Source: an uncultured Bacillota bacterium (lineage in GTDB: Bacteria; Sysuimicrobiota; Sysuimicrobiia; Sysuimicrobiales; Segetimicrobiaceae). Taken from it: 64,000 bases of DNA. This document shows, in pieces, positions 6,195 through 21,274 of this stretch. A model generated the notes under the pieces. That model worked only from the letters and a program-made list of their open reading frames with translations. It was not told the origin of the DNA and made no database searches. Positions within the stretch are counted from its first letter, which is position 1. The number at the start of each line of letters is the position of its first letter. Position numbers and translations under genes: made by a program. Location: the NCBI GenBank assembly GCA_963804645.1, contig CAWDRG010000005.1, positions 256,001 to 320,000 on the forward strand, in the 5' to 3' direction.

Positions 6195-8597
6195 CTACGC
6201 CCCGGCGGGCGGCGTGAACGTCGTCACCACCGGCGGCGTCCCCACGTACTTCTCCACCTGCACCAGCACCGAGTTCGTCGGGTTCCCGCCCGACAACTTC
6301 GAACTCGGCGTGTCCGTCGTCAGGTTGTTCACGTTCCCGTGCCGGTCCAGCGTCCCCACCGACCCCGGCGTCAGCGGATCCGACCACGCCCCCTCGTTCA
6401 GCACCATCACGCCCCGCCGCACCCGCGCCGTCACCAGCGCCCCCGCCAGCGTCTGCCCCCGCCCGTTGAACACCCGCACCACGTCGCCGTTCATGATCCC
6501 CCGCGCCGCCGCGTCCTGGGGGCTAATCCAGAGCGGTTCCCGCCCCGCCACCTCATACGCGTGCCGCAGCCCCGTCTGATCCAACTGCGAGTGCAGCCGG
6601 TTCTTCGGGTGCGACGATAGCAGGTGCAGCGGGTACTGCGCCGTCTCCGGACTCCCCAGCCATTCCGTCGGCGGCAGCCACGTCGCGTGCGGCGGCGTGT
6701 CGTCATAGTTGAACCCCGCGATCGTGCTCGAGTACAGCTCGATCTTCCCCGACGGCGTCCCGAGCGGGTTGTTCGCCGGGTCGGCGCGGAACTGCGCGTA
6801 CGCGACCACCTCGTTGGCGGCATCCGGGGTGGGGAACTCCAGGTACCCCTGCTTCCAGAACGTGTCGAAGTCCGGCATCGTCAGACCCCGCTCCTGAGCC
6901 TGCTGCACGGCCGCCCCGTAGAACTGCCGCAGCCACGCCATCTCGTCCTTGCCCTCCGTGTACTGCTGACCGAAGCCGAGACGGGACGCCAGCCCGGCGC
7001 AGATGTCGAAGTCGCTGCGCGATTCGAACAGCGGCGGCACCATCTGCTGCATCGCCATGATAAACCGGTCGGTGTTGAACAGGTCGTTGCGCTCCATCGT
7101 CGTCGTCGCCGGCAGCACGATGTCGGCATGCCGCGCGGTCGGCGTCCACGCGTAGTCGTGCACGATCGTGACCTCCGGCCGCTGCCACGCCACGAACGCC
7201 CGGTTCGTGAACTGCGCCTGATTCAAGTGGTTCGACCCCGCCAGGTACACCAGCTTGATGTCCGGATACGTCAGCTTCCGCCCGTCGTAGTCCACCGTCT
7301 TCCCCGGACTCTGGATCAGGTCGATCCACAGGTTGAGCGGCACGAAGTCCTTCACGGGATTGACGCCCGCGGACAGCCCCGGCACGCTCGGCGCGCTCCC
7401 GAACGGCACGCCCAGCGCACCCGGGAAGTCGCACTGCAGTCCGCCGCCCGGAAGGCCGATCTGGCCGAGCATCGATGACAGCGTAATGAGCATCCAGATC
7501 GGCTGCTCGCCGTGCGACGACCGCTGCAGCGAATATCCTCCGATCAGCATCGTCCGGGACTTGGCCATCCGGCGCGCAAGCGTGCGAATCGTCTCGGCCG
7601 GCACCTCCGTGATCGCGGCCGCCCACTCCGGCGACTTCGCCTGCCCGTCGCTCTTCCCGCTCAGGTAGTCCGCGAACTGCGCAAATCCCACCGTGTACTT
7701 GTCCAGAAACGCCTTGTCGTACAGGTTCTCCGTGTACAGCACGTGCGCAAGGCCCAGCATCAGCGCCGTGTCCGTGTTCGGCCGGATCACGATCCGCTCG
7801 GGCCGCAGGTACTGGTCCGTGTCCGATTCCACCGGGTTGACCGAGACCACCGGGATCTTCGCGTCCCGCAGCCGTGCGATCCACTCCATGTCGAAGTGTC
7901 CGGCGGAGCCTCCGGACCGCATCTCGGCGTTGCGCAGCGGGTCGTATCCCACCGTGACGATGAGCGTGGTGTTTTTCAGGATGACCGGCCAGACCGACTG
8001 CCGCGGCGCCGCATCGCCCAAGATGTGCGGCGTGATCACCGGCAGCACCGGTGCGCTGTACGAGTTGATCCGGAACACAAACCCGCCGTACATCGTCAAC
8101 ATCCGCTGCACGGCCCCGCCGCCGCTGTGAAAGTTGCCCGGGCTCTGCCAGCCCTGCGACGAATAAATCGACCGGTTGCCGTACTGGGTCTTCACGCGCT
8201 TCAGCTCGCCGGCGACGATGTCGAGCGCCTCGTCCCACGACACGCGCACGAACGGCTCGAGGCCCCGCTGCGTCGCGTCGCTCTGCGACCGGTTCTTGTA
8301 GAAGCCCTGACGGATCATCGGGTACTTCACGCGATCCGGGGCATACAGCAGATCCGGCATCGCCGTGACCATCGCGTTCGGGTAGCGATCCGTGGCGAAC
8401 GGCACCGTCTTCACGAGCCGGCCGCCCACGACCTGACCACTGTACGGGCCCCAATGGGCAACGCCCAGGCGCGTGCCGGGTGGAGCATCCGCGGCCGCCG
8501 CGCCGACGGGCAACGCCCCCATCAGCGGTGCCACCATGGTGCCTCCGACGAGCAGCCCGCTCTGACTCAGGAACGACCTTCTGGTAATTGGCTTCAT
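6195..8597 (-). CDS. Tat-exported molybdopterin oxidoreductase, DMSO reductase family (TorA/DorA/BisC type), copy 1
   Basis: TRRSFL Tat signal; RVKYPMIR, RVSWDEAL, HADIVLPATT, SHPKNRLHSQ motifs; no N-terminal Fe-S cysteines; GGGAGG RBS. Confidence 0.92.
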   Translation of the reverse strand: MKPITRRSFLSQSGLLVGGTMVAPLMGALPVGAAAADAPPGTRLGVAHWGPYSGQVVGGRLVKTVPFATDRYPNAMVTAMPDLLYAPDRVKYPMIRQGFYKNRSQSDATQRGLEPFVRVSWDEALDIVAGELKRVKTQYGNRSIYSSQGWQSPGNFHSGGGAVQRMLTMYGGFVFRINSYSAPVLPVITPHILGDAAPRQSVWPVILKNTTLIVTVGYDPLRNAEMRSGGSAGHFDMEWIARLRDAKIPVVSVNPVESDTDQYLRPERIVIRPNTDTALMLGLAHVLYTENLYDKAFLDKYTVGFAQFADYLSGKSDGQAKSPEWAAAITEVPAETIRTLARRMAKSRTMLIGGYSLQRSSHGEQPIWMLITLSSMLGQIGLPGGGLQCDFPGALGVPFGSAPSVPGLSAGVNPVKDFVPLNLWIDLIQSPGKTVDYDGRKLTYPDIKLVYLAGSNHLNQAQFTNRAFVAWQRPEVTIVHDYAWTPTARHADIVLPATTTMERNDLFNTDRFIMAMQQMVPPLFESRSDFDICAGLASRLGFGQQYTEGKDEMAWLRQFYGAAVQQAQERGLTMPDFDTFWKQGYLEFPTPDAANEVVAYAQFRADPANNPLGTPSGKIELYSSTIAGFNYDDTPPHATWLPPTEWLGSPETAQYPLHLLSSHPKNRLHSQLDQTGLRHAYEVAGREPLWISPQDAAARGIMNGDVVRVFNGRGQTLAGALVTARVRRGVMVLNEGAWSDPLTPGSVGTLDRHGNVNNLTTDTPSSKLSGGNPTNSVLVQVEKYVGTPPVVTTFTPPAGA

Positions 8598-8810
8598 CGC
8601 GACCTCCCCATCCGTGTTGGTTCGTAGACCGCGGGTCGCACGTGCACCCGGTCCACGACCCCCTACACCATACCGACTGCCCGGGCCGGCGTGCATCCGC
8701 TCTCAACCCGATTCCGCGTACGGCCGCGTGGGCGACGCGTCGGGCGCGGCACGACCGTGCGGGACGAAAATTACTGCCTCGGACGGATAGGCGCGCTGCG
8801 CAAACTCCGA

Positions 8811-8816
8811 TACAGT
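8811..8816 (+). promoter_or_regulatory. Putative -10 box (TACAGT) for the structured RNA, copy 1
   Basis: 6 nt upstream of the hairpin start; counterpart TACACT at the same spacing in copy 2. Confidence 0.5.
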
Positions 8817-8822
8817 GTGGGT

Positions 8823-9002
8823 GGAGCGCACACGGCGACGTGCCGGATCACATGCCGCGGTCGCGGGAGTTACGCATCGGCCACGTTCACTTCGGACCGG
8901 CGCCCGAGCGGGCTTGGGCACGATCCCGGAGAGCACCAGCCGACGGGAGACCCCGAGGACCACGCCTGAAGATGGCACAGGCCGTTCTAGTAGGTGCGCT
9001 CC
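8823..9002 (+). ncRNA. Putative ~180-nt structured non-coding RNA, copy 1 (family unresolved: 6S-like or IS110 non-coding-end-like)
   Basis: Closing stem GGAGCGCAC/GTGCGCTCC; nested pairings ACGGC/GCCGT, GTGCC/GGCAC, TCGGC/GCCGA, CTTCGG/CCGGAG; apical GCCCGAGC/GCTTGGGC; structure kept in copy 2. Confidence 0.65.
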
Positions 9003-9173
9003 TCGAATTTTTCCAACGCTCCGAACCTGACCATGCACTGTCACCGATGGACGTGCATGACCCGTCCGCGCCGTGGGCGAGGACTTTCCGGACCGGCGCA
9101 GAACTTCGCGACCGGGCGCCCCGCTGCGGGCGCACCGAGGGATGGAACCAGCGGAACTCGAGGAGGTTCAAGC

Positions 9174-10505
9174 ATGAATGCCACACTCACGCGACGCGAC
9201 GTGCTGGCCGCCGCGGCCCTCGCCCTGGCCGGCCTGGCGTCTGGGGACGCGGCATCGGCGGCGGTTCCGAAGGTCGGCCCGATCAACATCTTGATCAACG
9301 ACTCGCCCTGGTACCACGGCTTTGAGCAGCTGGTACAGCTGTACCAGCAAACAACGGGCAATCAAGTCAAACTCACCGTCACGCCGTTCACCGGCATGCT
9401 CGAGCAAACGCGCAACACGGTCACCGGCCCCGAAAGCACCTTCGACATCGTGAATTTGAACGAAGCGTGGTACGCGACGTTCTACGCGGGCGGGTTTGTG
9501 TCCCCGATCAAGTCGATCGATCCCAGTTTCCAGCTGGATCCCAATATTATCGAGTACGTCTACTCGACCCGGTGGAACTTTCAGAAGAAGTACTCGACCC
9601 CGGACGGCGCCCTGCTCGGCCTCCCGATCAACGGGAACATCCAGGCGCTCTATTACCGCGCGGACCTCTTCCAGCAGGCGGGGCTCAAACCGCCGGAGAC
9701 CTGGACTGACGTCGCCGCGGCGGCGAAGCGGTTCCACAATCCGCCGAACATGTACGGGTTTGCCCAGCGCGGCCAGCGGGCGGGATGGTCGTGCGGGTTT
9801 GACTGGTTTGCGTTCCTCCGCGCCCATAAGAGCGACTGGGTCGCCAATCCGCCGGCCGACTGGGCCGTGACGATCGACAGCGCCGCGGCCAAGGCGTCCC
9901 TCGCGGAATGCGACGACCTGCTCAAATCCTATGGACCGCCGAATCTCGCGGGACTCGGCAACGCCGAACTGACCCAACTGTTGGCGAGCGGCAAGTTGGC
10001 GATGGCGAACGCGGTGATCGCGACCTTCCCGTTGCTCGACGACCCTCAGAGTTCGGCCGTCGTCAACAAGGTCAACGTCACGGTGATGCCGAGGGCGGCG
10101 AACGGGGTGCACGCGACGACGTCTGGCATCTGGGTCATGTCGATTCCTCACAACCTCCCGGACGCGCGGAAGAAGGCGGCGCTGACCTTCTTACAGTGGG
10201 CGCTCACGAAAGACGCACAGATCCAGTACACGAAATTCGGGGCCATCCCGGTGCGCCAGGACGTGTACAAGTCCGATCTTGCCAACCAGCCCCAATTCCG
10301 CTGGATGAAGGCCATGGCCGCGAGCACCTCGTACATCCACGAAAACGTCCGCATTCCGGAAGGCCCGCAGATTACGGACAGCATCGAGCTGCACGTGAAT
10401 CAGCTGTACGCGGGCCAGATGTCCGTCGACCAAGCGGCCGACGCGATGGCCCAAGACATCTACGGCATCTTGCAAAAGGGAGGGTACCCGACGAAGCGCG
10501 GCTGA
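9174..10505 (+). CDS. Sugar ABC transporter substrate-binding protein with Tat signal
   Basis: AGGAGG RBS; LTRRDVL Tat motif; LYYRADLF...PPETW pattern of family 1 SBPs. Confidence 0.9.
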   Translation: MNATLTRRDVLAAAALALAGLASGDAASAAVPKVGPINILINDSPWYHGFEQLVQLYQQTTGNQVKLTVTPFTGMLEQTRNTVTGPESTFDIVNLNEAWYATFYAGGFVSPIKSIDPSFQLDPNIIEYVYSTRWNFQKKYSTPDGALLGLPINGNIQALYYRADLFQQAGLKPPETWTDVAAAAKRFHNPPNMYGFAQRGQRAGWSCGFDWFAFLRAHKSDWVANPPADWAVTIDSAAAKASLAECDDLLKSYGPPNLAGLGNAELTQLLASGKLAMANAVIATFPLLDDPQSSAVVNKVNVTVMPRAANGVHATTSGIWVMSIPHNLPDARKKAALTFLQWALTKDAQIQYTKFGAIPVRQDVYKSDLANQPQFRWMKAMAASTSYIHENVRIPEGPQITDSIELHVNQLYAGQMSVDQAADAMAQDIYGILQKGGYPTKRG

Positions 10506-10535
10506 GCGCGGCCGTCGGCGGCCAACCCGCGCGCG

Positions 10536-11303
10536 TTATCGTTCGGCGCCGCCGACCCAGCGTACCGCGCCGGTCCAAAAGCGGGCATACTGGTTCCACC
10601 TCGTGAAGTATTCGCCCCAATGCGGACACGGGTCCGAGCTGAACGCGAGCACGCGGGCCCGGCCGAAGGTGCCGACCGCCAGGAGCGGGTACTCCTCGAT
10701 CGTGGCCAACAACACTGCCCCGGGCTTGAGCTTAGACTTGTTGTAGCCGAAGAAGACCGGACAGTCCTCCCAAGGAATATCCCGCGTGACCGGATGGTCC
10801 GCCTTCAGAATACGAGGGCGTACGCCTTCCGGCGTATCCTCACGATCGTCCACGACGTTCAGTACCTCGAGCGGCAGCGCCTCGGCGAGCGCCGTCCCGT
10901 ACCAGTGCGCCGCCCCGTTGCGGCCCTGAAAGCTGACGTACCCGCCCGCATAAATCAGCCCGCCTCCCTCGCGGACAAACCGCGTCAGTTCGCGCATGCG
11001 GTTCGGCCGAGGGCGGAGCGGCTGCCCCTCCTCCAGCGGATAGGTCGTAAAGGTGTCGGCCCCAATGTCGCTGAGGATGACCACGTCGTAGTCGGCGCGG
11101 AGCGCCTCCGCCGTTTCGGGAAACTGCATGAAGGTCAGGTACGGCGGCAGGTGCGTGACCCTGATGTCGGGATCGGACGCGAGCGCGTTTCGCAGATGGC
11201 GGGCCGCATCTTTCACGCGGCTGACGTACTGGGTCACCTCGGCACCCTTCACCTCGGTCTCGAGCCGAATCGAGCCGTCTCCCACGTACAACACGCGAAT
11301 CAT
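10536..11303 (-). CDS. Class I glutamine amidotransferase-like protein (DUF1355/GATase1-like)
   Basis: YDVVILSDIGADT, GGGLIYAGGYVSFQG, SDPCPHW motifs; GGAGG RBS before MIRVLYVG. Confidence 0.75.
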   Translation of the reverse strand: MIRVLYVGDGSIRLETEVKGAEVTQYVSRVKDAARHLRNALASDPDIRVTHLPPYLTFMQFPETAEALRADYDVVILSDIGADTFTTYPLEEGQPLRPRPNRMRELTRFVREGGGLIYAGGYVSFQGRNGAAHWYGTALAEALPLEVLNVVDDREDTPEGVRPRILKADHPVTRDIPWEDCPVFFGYNKSKLKPGAVLLATIEEYPLLAVGTFGRARVLAFSSDPCPHWGEYFTRWNQYARFWTGAVRWVGGAER

Positions 11304-11382
11304 ATGCACAACCTCCGGTCGGAGTATCCTGCCACGCGCGGCCCCGCCGCATGCCCGATCGGCCCCGCGCGCCGCCAGGCGG

Positions 11383-12687
11383 TCACGACAGGGGCCGCGC
11401 GGGCCCGCGGGGCGACACTTGATCCGGATCGTTCGCCACCGCGCCGGCGGGGACCGGCAGACGGCCGGTGCGAAGTGGATCGTCGGTCTCCGCCATCCAC
11501 CGCTCGAGGCGCGCCCGCATCTCGAGCAGCGCGGCCGCGTAGGCCGGCGATTCGGCGACGTTGCACGCCTCCCCGGGATCAAAGACCAGGTCGTACAACT
11601 GCTCCGCGGTGACCGGACGATCCCGCCACCCAGACGCGAGCCACAGGTCTTTTCCGGGGCTGTCGTCCGTGTTCGCGAGCACCGGTGTCGCACGGCCGTC
11701 AAAGCGCCGGATGTACTTGTACCGGCGCGTGCGCACGGCACGCTGCGGTTCGTACGCCGCGTGGTAGTTGATTTCAGCCACGACCTGATCGCGGACCTCG
11801 TCCGCATCCCCGCGCACCAGAGGCAGCAGCGACGTCCCCTGCACCCAGCCGGGGGCGGAAATCCCGAGCAACTCGCAGAGCGTCGGAAACAAGTCGATAT
11901 GAGACACCAGCGCGTCGCAGACCCGTCCGCCGGTGAAGCCCCCGGGACCCCGCAGCACCAGCGTCACGCCGATGCCGTGGTCCGTCAACGTACACTTCAT
12001 CCCGGGAAACGGCGGCCCGTGGTCGGTCGTAAAGATGACCAGCGTCTCTCCCGCTCCTCCTCGGCCGTCGATCGCGCGCAGGACCTCCCCGACTCCCTCG
12101 TCGAGCGCCCGGAGGCTGGCGTTGAACGCGGCGACATCGCACCGGATGGCCGGCGTGTCGGGCAGCGTTGGCGGAGGCAGACAATAGCGCGGGTCCGCGG
12201 CGGCTCCGGGCGGCGGAAATTCACGGTGGGTCTCCCAGAACCCCACGGACAAGAAAAACGGCCGGTCAGGCGGCTGCGTAAGAAATGCCGCGGCGGCCGA
12301 CGCCACGTCTCGCGCGCACCGGCTCGCTGCGGCGAGGGTCGCATCGTATCCGACGCGGACCGTCCGGCGCGCGATGTGCTGCACCCCGACGGCGGCGCTG
12401 TAGTATCCGGCCGTACGCAACGTATGCACCAGGTGACGGCCGTAGTCGTACAGAGCGAATCCGCGATGCGCCAATCCGAGCATGCCGTTCGTATGCGGAT
12501 ACTGCCCGGTCAGCAGTGCGGCGCGGCTCGGCGAACACGTCGGCGCGGCGCTGTATGCCTGCCGGCAGAGCATTCCGTCTTCCGCGAGCGCCTGGATGTT
12601 CGGGGTCGGGACGTCATGGCCAAATGGACGCACGTAGCGCCCGGTGTCGTGGGAATGCAGGTACACGATGTTTGGCGGTCGCGTCAT
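11383..12687 (-). CDS. Sulfatase (Cys-type, formylglycine-dependent)
   Basis: PNIVYL start; CSPSRAALLTG (CxPxR) motif; TTDHG; EQLYDL. Confidence 0.93.
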   Translation of the reverse strand: MTRPPNIVYLHSHDTGRYVRPFGHDVPTPNIQALAEDGMLCRQAYSAAPTCSPSRAALLTGQYPHTNGMLGLAHRGFALYDYGRHLVHTLRTAGYYSAAVGVQHIARRTVRVGYDATLAAASRCARDVASAAAAFLTQPPDRPFFLSVGFWETHREFPPPGAAADPRYCLPPPTLPDTPAIRCDVAAFNASLRALDEGVGEVLRAIDGRGGAGETLVIFTTDHGPPFPGMKCTLTDHGIGVTLVLRGPGGFTGGRVCDALVSHIDLFPTLCELLGISAPGWVQGTSLLPLVRGDADEVRDQVVAEINYHAAYEPQRAVRTRRYKYIRRFDGRATPVLANTDDSPGKDLWLASGWRDRPVTAEQLYDLVFDPGEACNVAESPAYAAALLEMRARLERWMAETDDPLRTGRLPVPAGAVANDPDQVSPRGPARPLS

Positions 12688-13745
12688 CTGATAATCTCCT
12701 CCGCGTGTGTCTCAGCGGCACGGTAGATCGCCTCGGCGATCACCACCGCCGCCAACCCGTCGTGGGCAGACCGATCAGGCGGTGCCTCGCCCCTCACCAT
12801 CGCCAGCCAATGGCGATGCTGCCGCAGCCCGACGTCTTCGGGAACAATCTCCGGCGCGACCCACCCGCTGTCACGGTGCACCGCCAGCGGCCCGCGCTCG
12901 GTACGCAGCCACGCCGTTCCGCGTGTCCCGTAGATCTCCAGGCGGAACCGATCGGTGCCGGCGCGTTCGGCATAGCACATCTCATGGACGCCTCGCAGCC
13001 CGCTGTCAAACGTATAGAGCGCGAGCGCCACGTCTTCGAGTTCGGGCACCACCACCCGACCCTCCCGGATGGTGCGTTCGTGCACGGTCCTCGCGGTTGT
13101 CGCCTGGACCGCCCGAATCTCGCCAAAGAGGTACCGCAGCAGATCGATCCCGTGGCTGCCGAGCTGCATCACGACCCCGCCTGCCGCCTGGTCCTTGCGG
13201 TAGAACCATGCCGCCCAATCCGCCCCGGGGGTCGCGTTGCGCTGAGACACCATGGCCAGCGACCCCAGCGCCTCTTCCGCAAGCAGCCGGCGGATCGTCT
13301 CGATCTCGGGGAAGTATCTGTGCATGAAACTGACGCACAGCAACACCCCGGCGTGCTCCGCAGCGGCCATGATCTCGAGACATTCCGCGCGGTTGCGCGC
13401 CATCGGTTTCTGCAGCAAAATGGCCTTCCCGGCGCGCGCCGCGTCCACGGCCATGGGCGCGTGGGTGAAATCCGGCGTGGCGATCACCACGGCATCAATA
13501 TCGCGCCGGTCCAGAATATCCTGGTACCGGGTTGTCGCCATGGGAACGCCATGCCTCCGGGCCTCGGCCTGCACCCTCTCGCCGTCGCGGCTAAACAACG
13601 CGACGACCGCGGCGCCCGCGTCCTGCAGCCCTCGGATGTGGTACGCGCTGATGGAGCCCGCGCCCAAGACGCCCACCCGAACGCGCATGAGGCCGGCCGC
13701 GCGCGTACGCCGCACAGAGACCGGCAGCGCGTCCCGACCGCTCAC
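12684..13745 (-). CDS. Gfo/Idh/MocA family oxidoreductase
   Basis: GVLGAGSI Rossmann motif; DAVVIATPDFTH; LLQKPM; GSHGID. Confidence 0.9.
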   Translation of the reverse strand: MSGRDALPVSVRRTRAAGLMRVRVGVLGAGSISAYHIRGLQDAGAAVVALFSRDGERVQAEARRHGVPMATTRYQDILDRRDIDAVVIATPDFTHAPMAVDAARAGKAILLQKPMARNRAECLEIMAAAEHAGVLLCVSFMHRYFPEIETIRRLLAEEALGSLAMVSQRNATPGADWAAWFYRKDQAAGGVVMQLGSHGIDLLRYLFGEIRAVQATTARTVHERTIREGRVVVPELEDVALALYTFDSGLRGVHEMCYAERAGTDRFRLEIYGTRGTAWLRTERGPLAVHRDSGWVAPEIVPEDVGLRQHRHWLAMVRGEAPPDRSAHDGLAAVVIAEAIYRAAETHAEEIIR

Positions 13746-14572
13746 TTGAGGGCGCCCAGGGTCAGCCCCCGCACGATCTGCCGCTGCGCCAGAACGACGA
13801 CGATGATCGCCGGGATCGTGGCAAAAAATGCGGCCGCGCTCATGTCGCCGTAGCGGATGACGTACTGCTGCGCGTACTTGGCGATGCCGACCGGAATCGT
13901 CACGGCGTTCGTGGCCGTCAGGTTCAGGGCGAAGAGAAACTCGTTCCAGCTAAACACAAAACTCAGAATCGCGACGGCCGCGAGTCCCGGAGCGATCAGC
14001 GGGGCAACGATCTGGACAAACGTCCGGACGTTCGAGGCCCCGTCGATGTGGGCCGCCTCCTCTAGCTCCGTCGGCAGGTCGCCCACGAAGCTCTGCACGA
14101 TCCAGACGGCCATCGGCAGGTTGAGCACCAGGTAGGATAGGATGAGCGCGAGCCGGGTGTCGTACAGTCCGAGCGCACGGAACAAGAGGTAGTAGGGGCC
14201 AACGATCGTGACACCGGGCACCATGTGGAAGATTAACACCCACCCGGCGACGATCGCGGCCGTGTGTCGCGGCCAACGAAACCGCTCCAGGCTGTAGCCC
14301 GCAAGCGCCGCCACCACCACCACCAACGCCGTGGCGACGCTCGCCACCACGAGGCTATTGACCGTGTTCACGATGAAATTGGACTGCAGACTAAAAAATA
14401 GGTGGGTGTAATTGTCCAGCGTCGGCCGGAACACCCACGCCCCGGTGAGGATATCGATCTGGTACTTGATCGACGTGAGGAACGTCAGGACGAAGGGGAT
14501 CAACGTAACAAGCACGCCGAGGGCGAGGACCGGCAGTGCGAGCGCCGGCGAGCGCCGGCCGAAGATCCTCAC
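13742..14572 (-). CDS. Carbohydrate ABC transporter permease (MalG-like)
   Basis: ELEEAAHIDGAS; FSWNEFLFAL; RGLTLGALK C-terminus. Confidence 0.92.
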   Translation of the reverse strand: MRIFGRRSPALALPVLALGVLVTLIPFVLTFLTSIKYQIDILTGAWVFRPTLDNYTHLFFSLQSNFIVNTVNSLVVASVATALVVVVAALAGYSLERFRWPRHTAAIVAGWVLIFHMVPGVTIVGPYYLLFRALGLYDTRLALILSYLVLNLPMAVWIVQSFVGDLPTELEEAAHIDGASNVRTFVQIVAPLIAPGLAAVAILSFVFSWNEFLFALNLTATNAVTIPVGIAKYAQQYVIRYGDMSAAAFFATIPAIIVVVLAQRQIVRGLTLGALK

Positions 14573-15561
14573 GCGCGCGCCTCTCGGCGGCGGGCCGCGC
14601 GTAGGTAGACCGCCACAAATACCACGGTCGTGAGGATCGTGACAACGGAGAGAAACGCGGCGTAGCCCATGCGGGACTGCGGAAAAAACACCTGATAAAT
14701 GTAGAAGCTGATCACTTCGGAAGCCGTCCCGGGGCCGCCGCCGGTCAACAGAAAGACCTCATCGAACACCTTGAAGGCAAAAATCGTCCGAAAGAGCACC
14801 GCCACGAGAATCGTCGGTCGCAGCAGCGGAAGGACGACATACCGGAGCACTTGCCATCCCGACGCCCCGTCCACGCGCGCGGCCTCGATCGGCTCGGCGG
14901 GCAACGATTCGAAGCCGGCGAGCATCAAGAGAAACACAAACGACGTCCAGTGCCAGATATCGACAACCATGATCGAAGGAAGCGCCAGGTGGGGATTCGC
15001 GGTCCAGCTCTGGGCCGGCAGGTGCAGGAATCGCAGGACGACGTTGAAAATCCCGGTTTCGTAGTTGTACATCAGACTCCAGATCGTGCCGATCGCGATG
15101 CCGGGCACCAGGATTGGAATCATCAACAGTTGCCGTGCAAGACCGGCCGCTCTCCCGACTTCACTCGCGAGCAGCGCCAAGGTGAACCCGAGCACGGTTT
15201 CCACCACGACCGTCACGACAACAAACACGATCGTGTTGCCGATCGCGGCGAAAAACACATGGTCGCGCAGCAACGTGCGGAGATTGTCGAGGCCCGACCA
15301 CGTCCAAATGACCTGCCCTTGGCCGAAGGACACCGTCGAGAAGCTCATGCCGACCAACTCGAGGAGCGGGAACACGGTGAGCGCCAGCAACACCAACAGG
15401 GCCGGCAGGAGCGCCCAGTACTGAAACGCGCGATCGAACCGCTCGCCGAGCGGTCCGCGACGTCTCGGCGCGGTCTCGCGCGCCCCCGTGCTCCCAAACG
15501 CACAGCCTTTCACGCCACTCTCCGTGCGCGTCGATTCGCACATCCGGTCGACGCGACTCAC
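14569..15561 (-). CDS. Carbohydrate ABC transporter permease (MalF-like); start uncertain
   Basis: EAARVDGAS; LTGGGPGTASE; TM segments. Confidence 0.9.
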   Translation of the reverse strand: MSRVDRMCESTRTESGVKGCAFGSTGARETAPRRRGPLGERFDRAFQYWALLPALLVLLALTVFPLLELVGMSFSTVSFGQGQVIWTWSGLDNLRTLLRDHVFFAAIGNTIVFVVVTVVVETVLGFTLALLASEVGRAAGLARQLLMIPILVPGIAIGTIWSLMYNYETGIFNVVLRFLHLPAQSWTANPHLALPSIMVVDIWHWTSFVFLLMLAGFESLPAEPIEAARVDGASGWQVLRYVVLPLLRPTILVAVLFRTIFAFKVFDEVFLLTGGGPGTASEVISFYIYQVFFPQSRMGYAAFLSVVTILTTVVFVAVYLRAARRREARA

Positions 15562-15721
15562 CGCGGTCTGGAGCCGTCGGCGTCAAGGATCTCCGGGAAA
15601 CGGCCCCTCGCGCAGAGAAGCCGGTCGCTCGATATTCGCGACCATGCTACCCCGTCCTCCCGCGCGCCTACGGAGGATGAGTGGAGGAACCGTTTTGCGC
15701 GTCCCCGAACCCGAGTGCCGC

Positions 15722-16714
15722 ATGGGATATTTCCTCGGGGTCGACGGCGGTGCCTCCAGCACAAGCTGCGCGGTGTGCGACGATGACGGCGCAGTCCTCG
15801 GCATCGGCCGCGGGTACGCCAGCAACCACATCCTCGCGCCCGGCGGACGAGAGCGCGCGCGCGCCGCGGTCGGCGGGGCCATCCAGGCGGCACTGCGGGC
15901 AGCCGGGCTCGGGACGATCGAGTACCGTGCGGTCCAGTTCGGCATGACCGGAATCGTGGCAGGCAGCGAGCGTGCGGATGCGTTCGCGGAGGTCGCTGCG
16001 GATCTGCTCAAGGCCGAGACGGTGCTCATCCATGAGGATTCCTGGATTGCGCTCGCCGGCGCCCTGGCCTGCGGGTCCGGTGTCATGGTCATCGCCGGGA
16101 CCGGGTCGATCGCCGTGGGCCTGGATCCCGACGGCCGCGTCGCCCGCGCCGGGGGCTGGGGCTACCTCTTCGGAGACGACGGCAGCGCGTTCGCGTTGGG
16201 CCGCGGCGGCGTGCACGCCGCGCTCCACGCCCGCGACGGCACCGGGCCGGACACGAACCTGGTCGAGCACATCCCTGCGGTGGTCGGCATGGACCTGGCC
16301 GCGATCACGTGGGAGTATTACCAAGGACGTCTCGACCGCGCCGTGATCGCTCGGCTGGCCGCCGTGGTCACGGAGTCGGCCGCCGCGGGCGATCCCGTCG
16401 CCCGGCGCCTCGTCGCGGAGGCCGCCACGGCGCTGGCGAACCTTGCGGCGGCGGTGACCCACCGCCTTCACTGGCCTGATGGCGCCACCGCGGTCGCACC
16501 GGTGGGTGGGGTGTTCGACGCCGGCGCGACCATCCTGCATCCGCTGCGCGAGGCGCTCGCCTCCCGCGCCCCCGGGGCGGTTCTCGTGCCCCCGCGGTAC
16601 GACCCGGCCGCGGGCGCTCTGCTGCTGGCGCTGCGCGCGGCGGGTGTGCCGCACACCCCCGAGCGGCTCGCACTGCTCGCCGCGACGTGGGAACTGCGGT
16701 CGACCGCGCCGTGA
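15722..16714 (+). CDS. BadF/BadG/BcrA/BcrD-type sugar kinase (N-acetylglucosamine/N-acetylmuramic acid kinase-like)
   Basis: LGVDGGAS, IAGTGSIA, RAGGWGYLFGDDGSAF motifs. Confidence 0.88.
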   Translation: MGYFLGVDGGASSTSCAVCDDDGAVLGIGRGYASNHILAPGGRERARAAVGGAIQAALRAAGLGTIEYRAVQFGMTGIVAGSERADAFAEVAADLLKAETVLIHEDSWIALAGALACGSGVMVIAGTGSIAVGLDPDGRVARAGGWGYLFGDDGSAFALGRGGVHAALHARDGTGPDTNLVEHIPAVVGMDLAAITWEYYQGRLDRAVIARLAAVVTESAAAGDPVARRLVAEAATALANLAAAVTHRLHWPDGATAVAPVGGVFDAGATILHPLREALASRAPGAVLVPPRYDPAAGALLLALRAAGVPHTPERLALLAATWELRSTAP

Positions 16715-17409
16715 GCTCCGGGTGGGAGCACCGGCTGCGGGGCGGCCTGATCGTGTCGTGCCAGGCGCTGCCGGACAGTCCCCTGCGTGATCCGGACATG
16801 ATCGCCGCGCTCGCACGATGTGCCGAGCGCGGCGGTGCCGTGGGCGTCCGCATCGACGGCCCGGCGGACATCGCCGCGGTCCGCCGCGTGGTCACCCTGC
16901 CGATCATCGGACTCTACAAGGTCGCCCGCGATCGACCGGTGTACATTACGCCGACGTTCGCGGAGGCGCACGCCATCGCGCACGCCGGAGCGGACCTCAT
17001 CGCGCTGCAGGCGACGCGAGAGCGCGGCACGGACCGGACCGCCGACCCGCTGGCCGCCCTCATCGCCCGCATTCACGCGGAATGCGGGATCCCGGTGATG
17101 GCGGATGTCTCGAGCCTGGACGAGGGGCTCGGGGCTGCCGCGAGCGGGGCCGATGTCGTCGCCACTACGATGGCGGGCTACACTCCGCACAGCCGGCAGA
17201 TGAGCGGACCCGATCTCGAGCTGATTCGCGAACTCGCCCAGGCCCTCGCCGTTCCGATCGTGGCCGAAGGACGGATCTCAACGCCGGAGGAGGCCGCGGC
17301 GGCGCGCCGCGCCGGCGCGTTTGCGGTGGTCGTCGGCCGCGCGATCACGATGCCTGAGGCCATTACGGCCAGGTTTGTCTCGGCCGTCGGCAGCGCTGCG
17401 GGTACCTAA
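16711..17409 (+). CDS. nanE: N-acetylmannosamine-6-phosphate 2-epimerase
   Basis: GLIVSCQA, PIIGLYK, VYITPT, TTMAGYT, AEGRI, VVVGRAIT motifs; GTGA overlap with the kinase stop. Confidence 0.92.
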   Translation: MSSGWEHRLRGGLIVSCQALPDSPLRDPDMIAALARCAERGGAVGVRIDGPADIAAVRRVVTLPIIGLYKVARDRPVYITPTFAEAHAIAHAGADLIALQATRERGTDRTADPLAALIARIHAECGIPVMADVSSLDEGLGAAASGADVVATTMAGYTPHSRQMSGPDLELIRELAQALAVPIVAEGRISTPEEAAAARRAGAFAVVVGRAITMPEAITARFVSAVGSAAGT

Positions 17410-17476
17410 CCAGGACGGGCACAGGGCCGGTGGAAGCCCCTGTGCCCGCGGTCCCCTCGCCGTCCGTGCGTGCGCT

Positions 17477-19882
17477 CTATGCCCCTGCGGGCGGCGTGAA
17501 CGTCGTCACCACCGGCGGCGTCCCCACGTACTTCTCCACCTGCACCAGCACCGAGTTCGTCGGGTTCCCGCCCGACAACTTCGAACTCGGTGTGTCCGTC
17601 GTCAGGTTGTTCACGTTCCCGTGCCGGTCCAGCGTCCCCACCGACCCCGGCGTCAGCGGATCCGACCACGCCCCCTCGTTCAGCACCATCACGCCCCGCC
17701 GCACCCGCGCCGTCACCAGCGCCCCCGCCAGCGTCTGCCCCCGCCCGTTGAACACCCGCACCACGTCGCCGTTCATGATCCCCCGCGCCGCCGCGTCCTG
17801 GGGGCTAATCCAGAGCGGTTCCCGCCCCGCCACCTCATACGCGTGCCGCAGCCCCGTCTGATCCAACTGCGAGTGCAGCCGGTTCTTCGGGTGCGACGAT
17901 AGCAGGTGCAGCGGGTACTGCGCCGTCTCCGGACTCCCCAGCCATTCCGTCGGCGGCAGCCACGTCGCGTGCGGCGGCGTGTCGTCATAGTTGAACCCCG
18001 CGATCGTGCTCGAGTACAGCTCGATCTTCCCCGACGGCGTCCCGAGCGGGTTGTTCGCCGGGTCGGCGCGGAACTCCGCGTACGCGACCACCTGGTTGGC
18101 GGCGTCCGTGACCGGGAATTCCAGGTACCCCTGCTTCCAGAACGTGTCGAAGTCCGGCATCGTCAGACCCCGCTCCTGAGCCTGCTGCACGGCCGCCCCG
18201 TAGAACTGCCGCAGCCACGCCATCTCGTCCTTGCCCTCCGTGTACCGGTCGCCAAGGCCCAGCCGGGGTGCCAGCCCCGCACAGATGTCGAAGTCGCTGC
18301 GCGATTCGAACAGCGGCGGCACCACCTGCTGCATCGCGATGATGAACCGGTCCGTGCTGCAGAGGTCGTTGCGCTCCATCGTCGTCGTCGCCGGCAGCAC
18401 GATGTCGGCATGCCGCGCGGTCGGCGTCCACACGTAGTCGTGCACGATCGTGACCTCCGGCCGCTGCCACGCCACGAACGCCCGGTTCGTGAACTGCGCC
18501 TGATTCAAGTGGTTCGACCCCGCCAGGTACACCAGCTTGATGTCCGGATACGTCAGCTTCCGCCCGTCGTAGTCCACCGTCTTCCCCGGACTCTGGATCA
18601 GGTCGACCCACAGGTTGAGCGGCACGAAGTCCTTCACGGGGTTGACCCCGGTCGGCAGCCCCGCCACGCTCGGCGCGCTGCCGATCGGCAGCCCCAACCC
18701 GCTGCTCGGCGAGTCAGCCTGCAGCCCGCCGCCCGGAAGGCCGATCTGCCCCAGCATCGACGCAAGGGTCACGAGCATCCAGATCGGCTGTTCGCCGTGC
18801 GACGCCCGCTGCATGGAGTATCCGCCCATCGTGATCGTGCGCGACTTAGCCATCCGGCGCGCGAGCGTGCGAATCGTCTCGGCCGGCACCTCCGTGATCG
18901 CGGCCGCCCACTCCGGCGACTTCGCCTGCCCGTCGCTCTTCCCGCTCAGATAGTCCGCGAACTGCGCAAACCCCACCGTGTACTTGTCCAGAAACGCCTT
19001 GTCGTACAGGTTCTCCGTGTACAGCACGTGCGCAAGGCCCAGCATCAGCGCCGTGTCCGTGTTCGGCCGGATCGCGATCCGCTCGGGCCGCAGGTACTGG
19101 TCCGTGTCCCCTTCCACCGGGTTGATCGAGACCACCGGGATCTTCGCGTCCCGCAGCTGCGCGATCCATGCCATGTCGAAGTGCGTGCCGTTCCCGCCCG
19201 AACGCATCTCCGCGTTCCGGAGCGGATCGTGCCCGAAGAATACGATCAGGGTGCTGTGCTGGAGAATCACCGGCCATGCCGACTGCCGCGGCGCCGCATC
19301 GCCCAAGATGTGCGGCGTGATCACCGGCAGCACCGGCGCGCTGTACGAGTTGATCCGGAACACGTAGCCGCCGTACATGCCCAACAGACGCTGTACGGCC
19401 CCGCCGGCACTGTGAAAGTTCCCGGCGCTCTGCCAGCCTTGCGCCGAATAGATCGACCGGTTGCCGTACTGGGTCTTCACGCGCTTCAGCTCGCCGGCGA
19501 CGATGTCGAGCGCCTCGTCCCACGACACGCGCACGAACGGCTCGAGGCCCCGCTGCGTCGTGTCGCTCTGCGACCGGTTCTTGTAGAAGCCCTGGCGGAT
19601 CATCGGGTACTTCACGCGGTTCGGAGCGTACAGCAGATCCGGCATCACTGTGACCATCACGTTCGGGTAGCGATCCGTGGCGAACGGCACCGTCTTCATC
19701 AACCGTCCCCCTGCCACCTGGGCGCTGAACGGGCCCCAATGCGCGACGCTGATGCGCGTCGCGGTCTCGGCATCTGCGGCCGCCGCGCCGGTCGGCAGCA
19801 CCCCTACCAGCGGCGCTGCCACCACGCCTCCGAGGAGCAACCCGCTCTGGCTCAGGAACGACCTTCTCGTGACTGGTTTCAT
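17477..19882 (-). CDS. Tat-exported molybdopterin oxidoreductase, DMSO reductase family, copy 2
   Basis: Same motifs as copy 1; the C-terminal region from FRADPANNP onward is identical in protein sequence. Confidence 0.92.
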   Translation of the reverse strand: MKPVTRRSFLSQSGLLLGGVVAAPLVGVLPTGAAAADAETATRISVAHWGPFSAQVAGGRLMKTVPFATDRYPNVMVTVMPDLLYAPNRVKYPMIRQGFYKNRSQSDTTQRGLEPFVRVSWDEALDIVAGELKRVKTQYGNRSIYSAQGWQSAGNFHSAGGAVQRLLGMYGGYVFRINSYSAPVLPVITPHILGDAAPRQSAWPVILQHSTLIVFFGHDPLRNAEMRSGGNGTHFDMAWIAQLRDAKIPVVSINPVEGDTDQYLRPERIAIRPNTDTALMLGLAHVLYTENLYDKAFLDKYTVGFAQFADYLSGKSDGQAKSPEWAAAITEVPAETIRTLARRMAKSRTITMGGYSMQRASHGEQPIWMLVTLASMLGQIGLPGGGLQADSPSSGLGLPIGSAPSVAGLPTGVNPVKDFVPLNLWVDLIQSPGKTVDYDGRKLTYPDIKLVYLAGSNHLNQAQFTNRAFVAWQRPEVTIVHDYVWTPTARHADIVLPATTTMERNDLCSTDRFIIAMQQVVPPLFESRSDFDICAGLAPRLGLGDRYTEGKDEMAWLRQFYGAAVQQAQERGLTMPDFDTFWKQGYLEFPVTDAANQVVAYAEFRADPANNPLGTPSGKIELYSSTIAGFNYDDTPPHATWLPPTEWLGSPETAQYPLHLLSSHPKNRLHSQLDQTGLRHAYEVAGREPLWISPQDAAARGIMNGDVVRVFNGRGQTLAGALVTARVRRGVMVLNEGAWSDPLTPGSVGTLDRHGNVNNLTTDTPSSKLSGGNPTNSVLVQVEKYVGTPPVVTTFTPPAGA

Positions 19883-20151
19883 CGCGTCCCCCCCGCCGTG
19901 CTAGTCTCCCGCGTACCGCCGCTGGGCGGGTCGGCACCCGCCGCCCCTCCACCGGTCCCGCGGGTCGAAGTTCTCACCAAAACAGAGATGGAACTCCGCC
20001 ACGTCTACCATACCGACGGCCCGGGCCGACGCCTATCCCCTCTCAACCTGATTCCGCGCTCGCACGGCAGACCCGCCTGAGGGTGACGCGCCTCGGCCGC
20101 GCGCGGCGCAAATAGTCTCTCGGACTGATAGGCACGCGGGAAATCGTGGGA

Positions 20152-20157
20152 TACACT
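20152..20157 (+). promoter_or_regulatory. Putative -10 box (TACACT) for the structured RNA, copy 2
   Basis: 6 nt upstream of GGAGCGCAC, same spacing as copy 1. Confidence 0.5.
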
Positions 20158-20163
20158 ATGCAT

Positions 20164-20340
20164 GGAGCGCACGCGGCGATGTGCCGAGTCAAACGCCGCG
20201 GTCGGGATGCCGAGAGTCGGCCACGTTCACTCCGGGCAGTCGCCCAAGAACGACGGGCAGGACGCCGGAGAGCACCAGCCGACGGTAGGCCCCGGAGGCC
20301 GCGTCTGAAGACGGCACCGGCCGCACCAACAGTGCGCTCC
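20164..20340 (+). ncRNA. Putative ~177-nt structured non-coding RNA, copy 2
   Basis: GGAGCGCAC/GTGCGCTCC closing stem; GCGGC/GCCGC, GTGCCG/CGGCAC, CGCGGTC/GGCCGCG, GTCGGC/GCCGAC, CTCCGG/CCGGAG; followed by AATTTTT as in copy 1. Confidence 0.65.
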
Positions 20341-20416
20341 TAAATTTTTCGCCGGAGACTCGCACCGATGCCGCCGTGTCGATTTGACGACGCGTACGGC
20401 ACGCCGACGCCCGGCG

Positions 20417-21274
20417 TCAGCCCAACTTGCGGAGCCGCGGGTCGAGCATATCCCGCACGCCGTCGCCCACAAAGTTGAACCCGAGCACGAGGCACAGAAT
20501 CGCGAGCGCGGGAAACGTCGCGATCCACCACTGGTCCATCAGGAAGTTGCGCCCTTCGGAGACCATGAGTCCCCACTCCGGCGTCGGCGGCTGCGCCCCG
20601 AACCCGATAAACGACAGCCCCGCCGAGATGAGGATGATGGAGCCGATGTTGAGCGTCGCCTGGACGAACAGCGGCGCGAGCGCGTTGGGGATGAGATGGC
20701 GCACGATGATGACGACGTCGGTGGCCCCCTGCGCCCGCGCGGCTTCGACATAGTCTTTCGTCCGCAGCGTCAGGATCTGGGCACGCATCACCCGTGCATA
20801 CGACGGCCATGAGGTAATCGCGATTGCGATCAGGGCGTTCGTCAGGCTCGGTCGCAGAATGGCGGAGATCGCCATGGCCAGAATCAAACTCGGAAACGCC
20901 AGGAACATGTCCGTCACGCGCATCAGCGACTCGTCCCACCACGCCCCCAGCCAGCCGGCGCTGGTGCCGGTGATGACGCCGAACGCGGCAGCGGCCGATA
21001 CCACGGTGATGCCGGAGACGACGGAGATGCGGGCGCCGTAGACCACCCGGCTGTAGACGTCGCGGCCGAGCGAGTCCAGACCGAACGGGTGCGCGGTGCT
21101 CGGCGCCCCGAGCCGCTTCGCGAGATCCTGGGCGAGCGGGTCTTGAAGGGCGAGCCACGGGGCGAGCAGCGCGATCAGCACGAACGCCGCGATCAATCCC
21201 ACGCCGATCAGCGTGAGCGGACTCCGGCGCACCGCACGCCAGGCGACGTGCGTGGCCCCGCGGTCCCGGGTCAC
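20417..21274 (-). CDS. Peptide/nickel ABC transporter permease (DppC/OppC-like)
   Basis: HPFGLDSLGRDVYSRVVYGARIS; DYVEAARAQGA; GDGVRDMLDPR. Confidence 0.93.
   Translation of the reverse strand: MTRDRGATHVAWRAVRRSPLTLIGVGLIAAFVLIALLAPWLALQDPLAQDLAKRLGAPSTAHPFGLDSLGRDVYSRVVYGARISVVSGITVVSAAAAFGVITGTSAGWLGAWWDESLMRVTDMFLAFPSLILAMAISAILRPSLTNALIAIAITSWPSYARVMRAQILTLRTKDYVEAARAQGATDVVIIVRHLIPNALAPLFVQATLNIGSIILISAGLSFIGFGAQPPTPEWGLMVSEGRNFLMDQWWIATFPALAILCLVLGFNFVGDGVRDMLDPRLRKLG

Follow-up and report, generated by a model that had tools for sequence, protein, structure and literature searches.

What are the two elements of about 180 nucleotides (nt), each divergent from a molybdoenzyme gene, in the genome of an uncultured bacterium assigned to the family Segetimicrobiaceae (Sysuimicrobiota)? 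The elements lie in a stretch of 64,000 nt (the window), which represents positions 256,001 to 320,000 of the forward strand of contig CAWDRG010000005.1 (designated here as C5) of GenBank assembly GCA_963804645.1 (designated as G000), a genome that is 96.8% complete. Judged from sequence, the elements at 8823..9002 (copy A) and 20164..20340 (copy B), both on the + strand, are genes with a promoter and a terminator-like end of their own, and they are paralogues within an undescribed family of structured RNAs. The family is real, unclassified and widely carried; the preliminary description of the window was right in its structural inference and wrong in both of its functional guesses, which were 6S RNA and an orphan guide RNA of the insertion sequence (IS) family IS110. 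The explanation that best accounts for the whole, and which is held here with slightly better than even confidence, is a trans-acting protein-binding RNA with condition-specific isoforms.

Structure and distribution of the RNA family

Both copies begin with the closing-stem strand GGAGCGCAC (at 8823 and 20164) and end with the opposite strand GTGCGCTCC (at 9002 and 20340). A -10-like box, TACAGT at 8811..8816 (+) in copy A and TACACT at 20152..20157 (+) in copy B, is placed 6 nt 5' of the first G of the RNA. Farther upstream is a motif designated here as the M-type promoter motif, with the sequence AATTAC-N9-CGGATAG at 8769..8790 (+) and ending about 21 nt 5' of the -10 box in copy A, and with the sequence AAATAG-N9-CTGATAG at 20110..20131 (+), found by genome motif scan, in copy B. 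Directly 3' of the closing stem, copy A has a terminator-like U-rich tail, TCGAATTTTTCC at 9003..9014 (+), and the tail of copy B 3' of its closing stem is TAAATTTTTCG at 20341..20351 (+). A T-rich tract was present at this place in all 11 homologues found first. In pairwise alignment, the two copies have the blocks CGCGGTC, TCGGCCACGTTCAC and CCGGAGAGCACCAGCCGACGG in common, and a compensatory exchange distinguishes them (ACGGC/GCCGT in one, GCGGC/GCCGC in the other). Every detail given in the preliminary description for the stems, the TACA(G/C)T spacing, the tails, the shared blocks and the compensatory exchange was found in the sequence. The single long interrupted hairpin that it had drawn for each copy was recovered as well, with -86.4 kcal/mol and a z-score of -3.13 for copy A and -93.1 kcal/mol and a z-score of -4.26 for copy B; none of 200 shuffled sequences folded as well in either case. 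The reverse strands fold about as well or better (-92.2 and -100.2 kcal/mol, respectively), and therefore folding energy alone cannot settle the strand.

Two covariance models were computed: R1 from 11 sequences, and R2 from alignment A5 of 74 sequences, which was made in MAFFT independently of structure. Copy A scored 138.9 bits with R1 and 79.2 bits with R2 and is the most diverged member seen, while the scores of copy B were 167.1 and 110.0 bits, respectively. The RNA is about 165–185 nt long; a GC-rich stem joins its two ends, and the U-rich tail comes next. On A5, RNAalifold predicted 33 consensus pairs in seven short helices. Standard pairs were found in 96.9% of 2386 cells, versus 89.6% in shuffled controls and 39–50% with slid partners. 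Changes on both sides occurred in 19 of the 33 pairs, versus a mean of 11.1 after shuffling, counts that are inflated by kinship among the sequences; none of the 500 shuffles matched any of the observed pairing measures. The structural selection supposed in the preliminary description is borne out by these compensatory changes in the alignment of 74 sequences.

The strand was read from the G·U pairs, of which there were 231 cells: standard pairing is 96.9% on the + strand versus 88.4% when the alignment is read as the reverse strand. A G·U or U·G pair is at columns 27/172 in 59 of 73 distinct sequences and at columns 81/119 in 56 of 73. Model R1 gave 13–24 bits on the reverse strand, and on the forward strand 129–170 bits for 15 of 16 matches and 79.9 bits for the remaining one, the divergent variant L011. 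The + strand is accepted because the G·U asymmetry, the promoters and the U-rich tails agree.

Internal loops of the RNA are near-invariant across the phylum, and its stems and apical arm are variable. The invariant loops are GAAGUA / GAAAAG, A-N-UCAAAC / GAAGA, CACGU / GGCGGC, and GAGAG / GGUAGG, and about 65 near-invariant positions are kept phylum-wide. The largest conserved internal loops have about 8 × 6 and 5 × 6 nt. One internal loop has the AGUA/GAA make-up of what we take to be the consensus of the loop-E/sarcin-ricin module. The molecule is a rod that does not branch: it has no junction of several helices, and no pseudoknot was predicted. Members of the family fall into two gene types, H-type (housekeeping) and M-type, and the apical hairpin of the H-type is capped by GUAA, a GNRA tetraloop. 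The M-type keeps the UCAAAC/GAAGA and GAGAG/GGUAGG loops; it does not have the AGUA/GAA-type lower loop or the CACGU/GGCGGC loop, and idiosyncratic arms replace its GNRA hairpin. The M-type is, as read from sequence, a second and faster-evolving gene type to which both window copies belong.

A third copy in the same genome (copy C) was found by BLAST, which gave matches in 8 of 61 genomes including G000; the M-type copies of G000 are only about 75% identical to one another. Model R1 matched all 23 genomes of the taxonomic family, with 1–6 matches each and five copies in G000, and 73 of the 94 genomes of the order. With R2, matches were found in 74 of the 94 genomes of the phylum-level lineage, with 1–8 copies each (72 of 92 if two unpublished genomes, G034 and G078, with one match each, are left out). 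The search for homologues in related genomes that had been proposed together with the preliminary description was thus productive. Searches at class and at phylum level returned the same 94 genomes, and therefore the phylum is represented by one order in this collection. A neighbouring FTHFS protein gave a weak pointer to Actinomycetota, against which the presence of Hfq and of a canonical 6S RNA speaks. By family, R2 matched 22/22 genomes of f1 (the family of G000, in addition to G000 itself), 32/34 of f5, 17/22 of f2, 1/1 of f6, and 1/1 of f7, and it had no match in the 12 genomes of f4 and the single genome of f3. In most genomes the RNA gene is single and occupies a housekeeping locus that is syntenic. 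In metagenome contigs, a two-part motif scan gave at least 119 stretches; of the 80 loci listed from these, 50 were confirmed by R2, with 51 matches of 106–178 bits. A scan of GTDB contigs with an M-type-biased pattern gave eight loci, five of which were confirmed by R1; two Streptomyces loci and one Burkholderiales locus, for which R1 had no match at E≤1, were taken as chance. Carriage of the family is thus the rule in one phylum-level lineage of bacteria that are uncultured and live mainly in soil.

Several variants were seen along the way. Genome G002 has eight R2 matches, of which the extra weak ones (47–55 bits) may be further variants. A shorter, strongly diverged variant of about 143–150 nt (in G002 and at loci L011/L047 and L048) has an M-type promoter and the closing stem, but its core is replaced, and it is beside a Fer4_22 gene. 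In family f4, with 12 genomes that are 72–100% complete, neither this RNA (by R1 and R2) nor Rfam 6S was found (0/12 each); either both RNAs diverged beyond the models or both were lost.

Promoters, neighbours and transcripts of the two gene types

The promoter census comprised 111 unique copies, 109 of them with at least 80 nt of upstream sequence. The H-type promoter, with a TTGAC-like -35 box, N17 and a TAnnnT -10 box, was present in 71 of the 109 copies. The M-type motif A(A/T)T(A/C)N-N9-CNGAT(A/G)(G/C) was present in 26, both window copies included, and the remaining 12 matched neither regular expression. In 57 of the 71 H-type copies, GAAC-N4-(G/T)TT(C/G/T) is just upstream of the -35 box, and a TCCACA-like element is farther upstream in 65 of 71. 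The palindrome, similar to GAAC-N4-GTTC, resembles a LexA box, and the TCCACA element resembles a DnaA box (e.g., at loci L051:2430-2500, L107, and L124). The recA and lexA promoters of G000 itself carry CGAAC-N4-GTTTG (C4:114870 and C13:56302), and therefore the RNA may be under SOS control, DnaA control or both. In family f1, the H-type palindrome is degenerate (GAAC-N4-TTTC).

H-type genes of families f5, f2, f6, and f7 are divergent from nnr/yjeF at 20 of 52 loci examined. On their other side is glmS, acpS or a 3-hydroxyisobutyrate-dehydrogenase-like gene, and the RNA is opposite in strand to both neighbours. In f1, the H-type gene is located between a DUF1844 gene and a gene with DUF255/thioredoxin domains (15 loci). 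The two H-type loci of G000 are at C15:319979-320150 and C9:30422-30593. Tandem H-type pairs about 310–335 nt apart were observed upstream of the DUF255 gene in two genomes (G013:C21:20784-21264 and G021:C33:96041-96548) and at metagenome locus L257.

The H-type housekeeping paralogue is evidently expressed. Of 21 words sampled from the H-type locus L051:2430-2700, 63% of which is the RNA, a fraction of 0.33–0.57 was present in each of 14 runs that are registered as metatranscriptomes; the runs belong to 12 studies, on soil, peat or leaf litter. Contigs of four runs from four soil studies were placed on L051:2300-2900, and in all four they covered only 2505-2669 of this interval, with the flanking bins 2300-2488 and 2678-2900 empty in every run. 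Word depths reached 128 in run X2 and 219 in run X3. In contigs of X3, sequencing adapter directly precedes 2507 and directly follows 2665, and therefore fragment ends recur there. The empty flanks hint at a discrete transcript of about 165 nt.

The M-type promoter motif has the consensus AAATAC-N9-CCGATRG and precedes the -10 box by about 20 nt; TAnnnT was found 4–10 nt ahead of the model start in 24 of the 26 M-type copies. Neighbours of M-type genes are TorA/BisC-like reductases (three, all in G000), GAF-HisKA_3 kinases (four), PFK (four, one with HSP20), LonB-like proteins (two), Fer4_22 proteins (two), PGA_cap proteins (three), and DeoC-type aldolases (two). Most genes flanking the RNA are convergent with it or lie on the other strand, and they are not the same ones in different families; therefore the RNA is an independent gene and not a leader.

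The reductase genes of the window nevertheless raise the possibility of a cis-acting element. Divergent from copy A is a gene for an S/N-oxide reductase of the TorA/BisC family with a twin-arginine translocation (TAT) signal, at 6195..8597 (-), in which the Pfam domains Molybdopterin, Molydop_binding, and Molybdopterin_N were identified. Its start is the ATG at 8597 and not 8696, its N-terminus is MKPITRRSFLSQSG, and it scored 942.8 bits with the NCBIfam model bisC_fam, under the cut-off of 1017.55. The paralogous gene divergent from copy B is at 17477..19882 (-), with the start at ATG 19882; a TAT-type signal follows both starts, and the two proteins are identical in 728 of 801 residues (91%). 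Over the last approximately 200 residues they do not differ at all, a sign that the 3' halves of the two genes may have undergone gene conversion recently. Upstream of reductase A is a conserved block at 8665..8717 (-), GCGGAATCGGGTTGAGAG...GTCGGTATGGT, which aligns with the matching block upstream of reductase B at 20006..20058 (-); on the minus strand, the pieces common to both upstream regions read GCGGAATC.GGTTGAGAG ... GGCCCGGGC.GTCGGTATGGT. The block may be a promoter or operator of the reductase genes. TATGGT is about 70–120 nt ahead of both reductase start codons.

In such a cis-acting role, the long 5' region of the TorA-like reductase genes would hold a leader or a riboswitch on the minus strand, e.g., a new sensor of molybdenum cofactor (Moco). 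All three M-type copies of G000 are upstream of a reductase gene on the minus strand, the folds of the minus strands are no less stable than those of the plus strands, and the spacer is also conserved. The G·U pairs are strand-specific in the opposite sense, however, and the positions of the -10 box, of the upstream motif and of the U-tract suit transcription of the + strand. M-type genes of other genomes stand beside kinases, PFK, HSP20, Lon-like, and PGA_cap genes, and the Moco riboswitch model RF01055 had no match at the window copies in Rfam scans at E≤10. A reductase leader is therefore considered very improbable. The third M-type copy of G000 adjoins a third reductase paralogue, and the spacers upstream of reductases A and B have conserved blocks in common; gene, spacer and RNA were therefore copied as one unit. 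The M-type gene was duplicated together with the TorA-like reductase gene to give the three copies in this genome. No reductase of the TorA type was found among annotated neighbours of M-type copies in other genomes. The divergent molybdoenzyme genes of the preliminary description are thus real in the window, but they do not hold as a general rule: the association is a by-product of duplication, specific to this genome, and not a regulatory one.

The M-type promoter motif is shared with protein genes. The relaxed pattern AAWTAS-N9-CNGATRG has eight sites in G000, versus none for the reversed control. Three of them are upstream of RNA copies A, B, and C. Another three, each with TAnnnT 19–21 nt downstream, stand ahead of a DUF779-aldehyde dehydrogenase operon (at C5:248740, 7 kb before the window starts), an ABC permease gene (C8:100107), and a glutamate dehydrogenase gene (C9:486330). 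One of the remaining sites is inside a 23S ribosomal RNA (rRNA)-like sequence, and the other has no clear -10 box. In family f1, the strict motif was found at 34 sites in 15 of 23 genomes, versus one control site. Seven of these 34 share the spacer of the 23S rRNA-like site of G000 (six exactly and one with one change) and were taken as the same; at least 10 precede RNA copies. Genes following the other strict sites code for two more DUF779 proteins (in G002 and G005), STAS, multicopper oxidase, PhoU_div, and two CBS-domain proteins, as well as for cupredoxin, a COX2-like protein and a solute-binding protein. From this list, we infer that the motif may mark a stress/redox/energy regulon.

Relation to known RNA classes

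With Rfam 15 at gathering thresholds, no match was found at the RNA copies in a scan of the whole window, where only a group II intron was detected. The intron is at 46763-48642 (-), with group-II-D1D4-6 at 48411-48642 (163.4 bits) and Intron_gpII domain V at 46763-46848 (48.6 bits). At E≤10, nothing overlapped copies A and B in regions 8500-9400 and 19850-20700, and four H-type loci gave no match at E≤1. The RNA is therefore unassigned, as the preliminary description had it, and the Rfam check proposed with it found no family at either copy. A full-text literature search found no published description of such an RNA, which is not proof of absence.

The closest resemblance is to 6S RNA, including 6S-1 and 6S-2 of Bacillus subtilis: a rod of about 170–190 nt with paired 5' and 3' ends, a strong promoter of its own, abundance, usually one syntenic housekeeping gene, and extra paralogues that are regulated differently. 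The RNA could accordingly be the 6S RNA of the lineage or a 6S paralogue that mimics open promoter DNA and sequesters the sigma-70 holoenzyme, as its size and rod shape had suggested at first. The situation in G000 would agree with this: neither the Rfam model (E≤10) nor BLAST queries made from the 6S loci of G006 and G046 recovered a 6S RNA there, and among the six genomes of its genus only one has a 6S match, which is under the cut-off. This missing 6S may be due to divergence or to an assembly gap. Nevertheless, the Rfam 6S model RF00013 (gathering score 46.4 bits) matches a separate locus in 67 of the 94 genomes, in 63 of them above the cut-off (65 and 61 of 92 without the unpublished genomes), and carriers of the present RNA are among them. 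In G046, 6S is at C1:2697358 and this RNA at C1:2283540 and C1:710647; in G006, both are on contig C19 at different places. Neither the window copies (E≤10) nor the H-type loci match the 6S model, the large central bubble is missing, and the loops are sequence-invariant. An identity with 6S RNA is regarded as highly improbable.

The second guess was an orphan or domesticated bridge/seek guide RNA of IS110, in which differing loops would specify target and donor DNA. The bridge RNA of IS110 has about 177 nt, and the present RNA resembles it in size, in multiple internal loops and in several copies per genome in one family (up to eight matches per genome); furthermore, 23 matches of the IS110-type DEDD transposase (PF01548) were identified in G000. 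The nearest of these is about 51 kb from any of the five copies, however, and none was found on contig C5 with PF01548. No transposase was present among annotated neighbours of about 110 loci (approximately 115 proteins), nor is the RNA placed at the end of an IS. This absence of IS110 neighbours is the outcome that the preliminary description had set as a refutation of the guide-RNA idea. The internal loops are conserved and not programmable, and for the apical arms of copies A and B, which do vary, BLAST gave no further genomic match above the level of chance (best E 0.008–0.12). With most genomes having one copy at a syntenic housekeeping locus, an IS110 guide is the least credible of the identities considered, and the reading of the differing loops as guides falls with it.

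Among orphan conserved structured RNAs, the raiA motif and OLE RNAs, both with Rfam models, are comparable. Like them, the present RNA is independently transcribed, highly conserved, found comparatively, and has invariant unpaired nucleotides and no obvious partner gene. It differs by having no Rfam match, by a simpler unbranched rod and by expansion into promoter-swapped paralogues. Ms1 RNA, with a length of about 300 nt, offers another comparison. Ms1 of Actinobacteria is described as binding the core of RNA polymerase (PMC4191392) and as having been found by synteny with a HAD-hydrolase gene, and 6S RNAs are described as widespread except in Actinobacteria, where Ms1 occurs (both PMC9130861). 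Ms1 is similarly lineage-restricted, abundant, and a 6S-like rod missed by 6S sequence models. The present RNA has about 170 nt and no HAD-hydrolase neighbour and coexists with a 6S gene; it does not fit Ms1 in size, and in synteny it departs from the description in PMC9130861.

Other candidates were rejected as well. The gene of signal recognition particle RNA (RF00169) of G000 is at C10:47710-47809 (76.6 bits), and its model has no match at the RNA copies. For a Y RNA, the Ro60/TROVE domain PF05731 has no match in G000. For a sponge of CsrB/RsmZ type, CsrA (PF02599) has no match in G000 either, and the RNA is a single rod with no repeated GGA hairpins.

Proposed function and its significance

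The protein-binding reading is preferred because the RNA is an unbranched rod with invariant purine-rich loops, a strong promoter, abundance, no fixed neighbour and one copy per genome. Like 6S, Ms1 or Y RNAs, the RNA would work in trans, binding protein or serving as a scaffold or decoy, and it would touch its protein partner through the invariant purine-rich internal loops. The M-type paralogues would be condition-specific isoforms induced together with the stress/redox/energy regulon, and they may compete for the partner of the H-type or retarget it. That the M-type keeps the central loops and alters the lower loops and the apical arm suggests isoforms sharing one contact and differing in another.

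A serious rival, although an unlikely one, is a trans-acting base-pairing small RNA (sRNA), possibly Hfq-dependent, with loops that pair with co-regulated mRNAs. In favour of it, the RNA gene is independent and ends in a terminator with a U tail, G000 codes for Hfq, and the M-type promoter motif is common to metabolic and stress genes; moreover, sRNA genes are often divergent from functionally linked genes. On the other hand, the RNA is almost fully paired, its conserved unpaired stretches have 5–8 nt and are inside internal loops, and the number of near-invariant positions kept phylum-wide exceeds the needs of a seed region. Less credible still, and improbable on the whole, is an RNA that senses a ligand or is catalytic on its own, like the orphan "ornate" RNAs, with the loops as a pocket. 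Loop nucleotides that are invariant across the phylum and the GNRA-capped apical hairpin of the H-type would fit such an RNA, but the simple rod offers neither a multi-helix junction nor a predicted pseudoknot, no gene is consistently downstream, and there is no likeness to riboswitches or ribozymes in Rfam.

Several points weigh against a protein-binding RNA with M-type isoforms. Protein binding is deduced from loop conservation and the exclusion of other roles only, with no co-localised partner gene, and the presence of the Hfq gene leaves room for a base-pairing role. The evidence from RNA libraries concerns the H-type locus alone. Contigs show neither strand, nor true ends, nor level, and no silent stretch served as a control for DNA carry-over. 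In runs X2 and X4, one contig each runs 58–66 nt past the terminator at 2669 into sequence unlike G000; this overrun is probably from the locus of a relative, and it means read-through or DNA. Since the pairs were counted in the very alignment that yielded the consensus structure, the comparison with the slid controls is biased towards this structure. Beyond the phylum, the search was made with the M-type-biased pattern only. Of the 65 near-invariant columns, copy A departs from 15, the most of all 74 sequences, copy B from 6, and copy C from 8, compared with a median of 1 and a maximum of 13 in the other 71 aligned sequences. Departures of copy A include the UCAAAC and GGUAGG loops, and this copy may be decaying rather than specialised.

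A bolder version of the protein-binding RNA, which is put forward tentatively and is doubtful at present, would make the family a new class of abundant ribonucleoprotein RNA of the rank of 6S and Ms1, confined to a little-known phylum of the soil. Signals of replication and DNA damage would control the housekeeping gene, through the DnaA-box-like and LexA-box-like elements upstream of its promoter, and the promoter-swapped stress/redox isoforms, among them the two window copies, would retarget the same protein machine.

In the window, the association with molybdoenzymes is accounted for, on the present comparison of loci, as a by-product of duplication. More generally, recognition of the family would correct the annotation of these intergenic regions in metagenome-assembled genomes from soil. 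To our knowledge, few abundant structured RNAs of phylum-wide occurrence remain undescribed. The 6S, Ms1, Y, OLE, and raiA RNAs each opened work on a protein machine. RNA of the present family appears in assemblies of small metatranscriptomes from soil, in many studies made independently of one another, and the family provides material for pull-downs, structure probing and covariance-based annotation, for which the two models (of 11 and 74 sequences) were built. Its paralogues, which keep the central loops but swap the promoter, the lower loops and the apical arm, represent a natural experiment.

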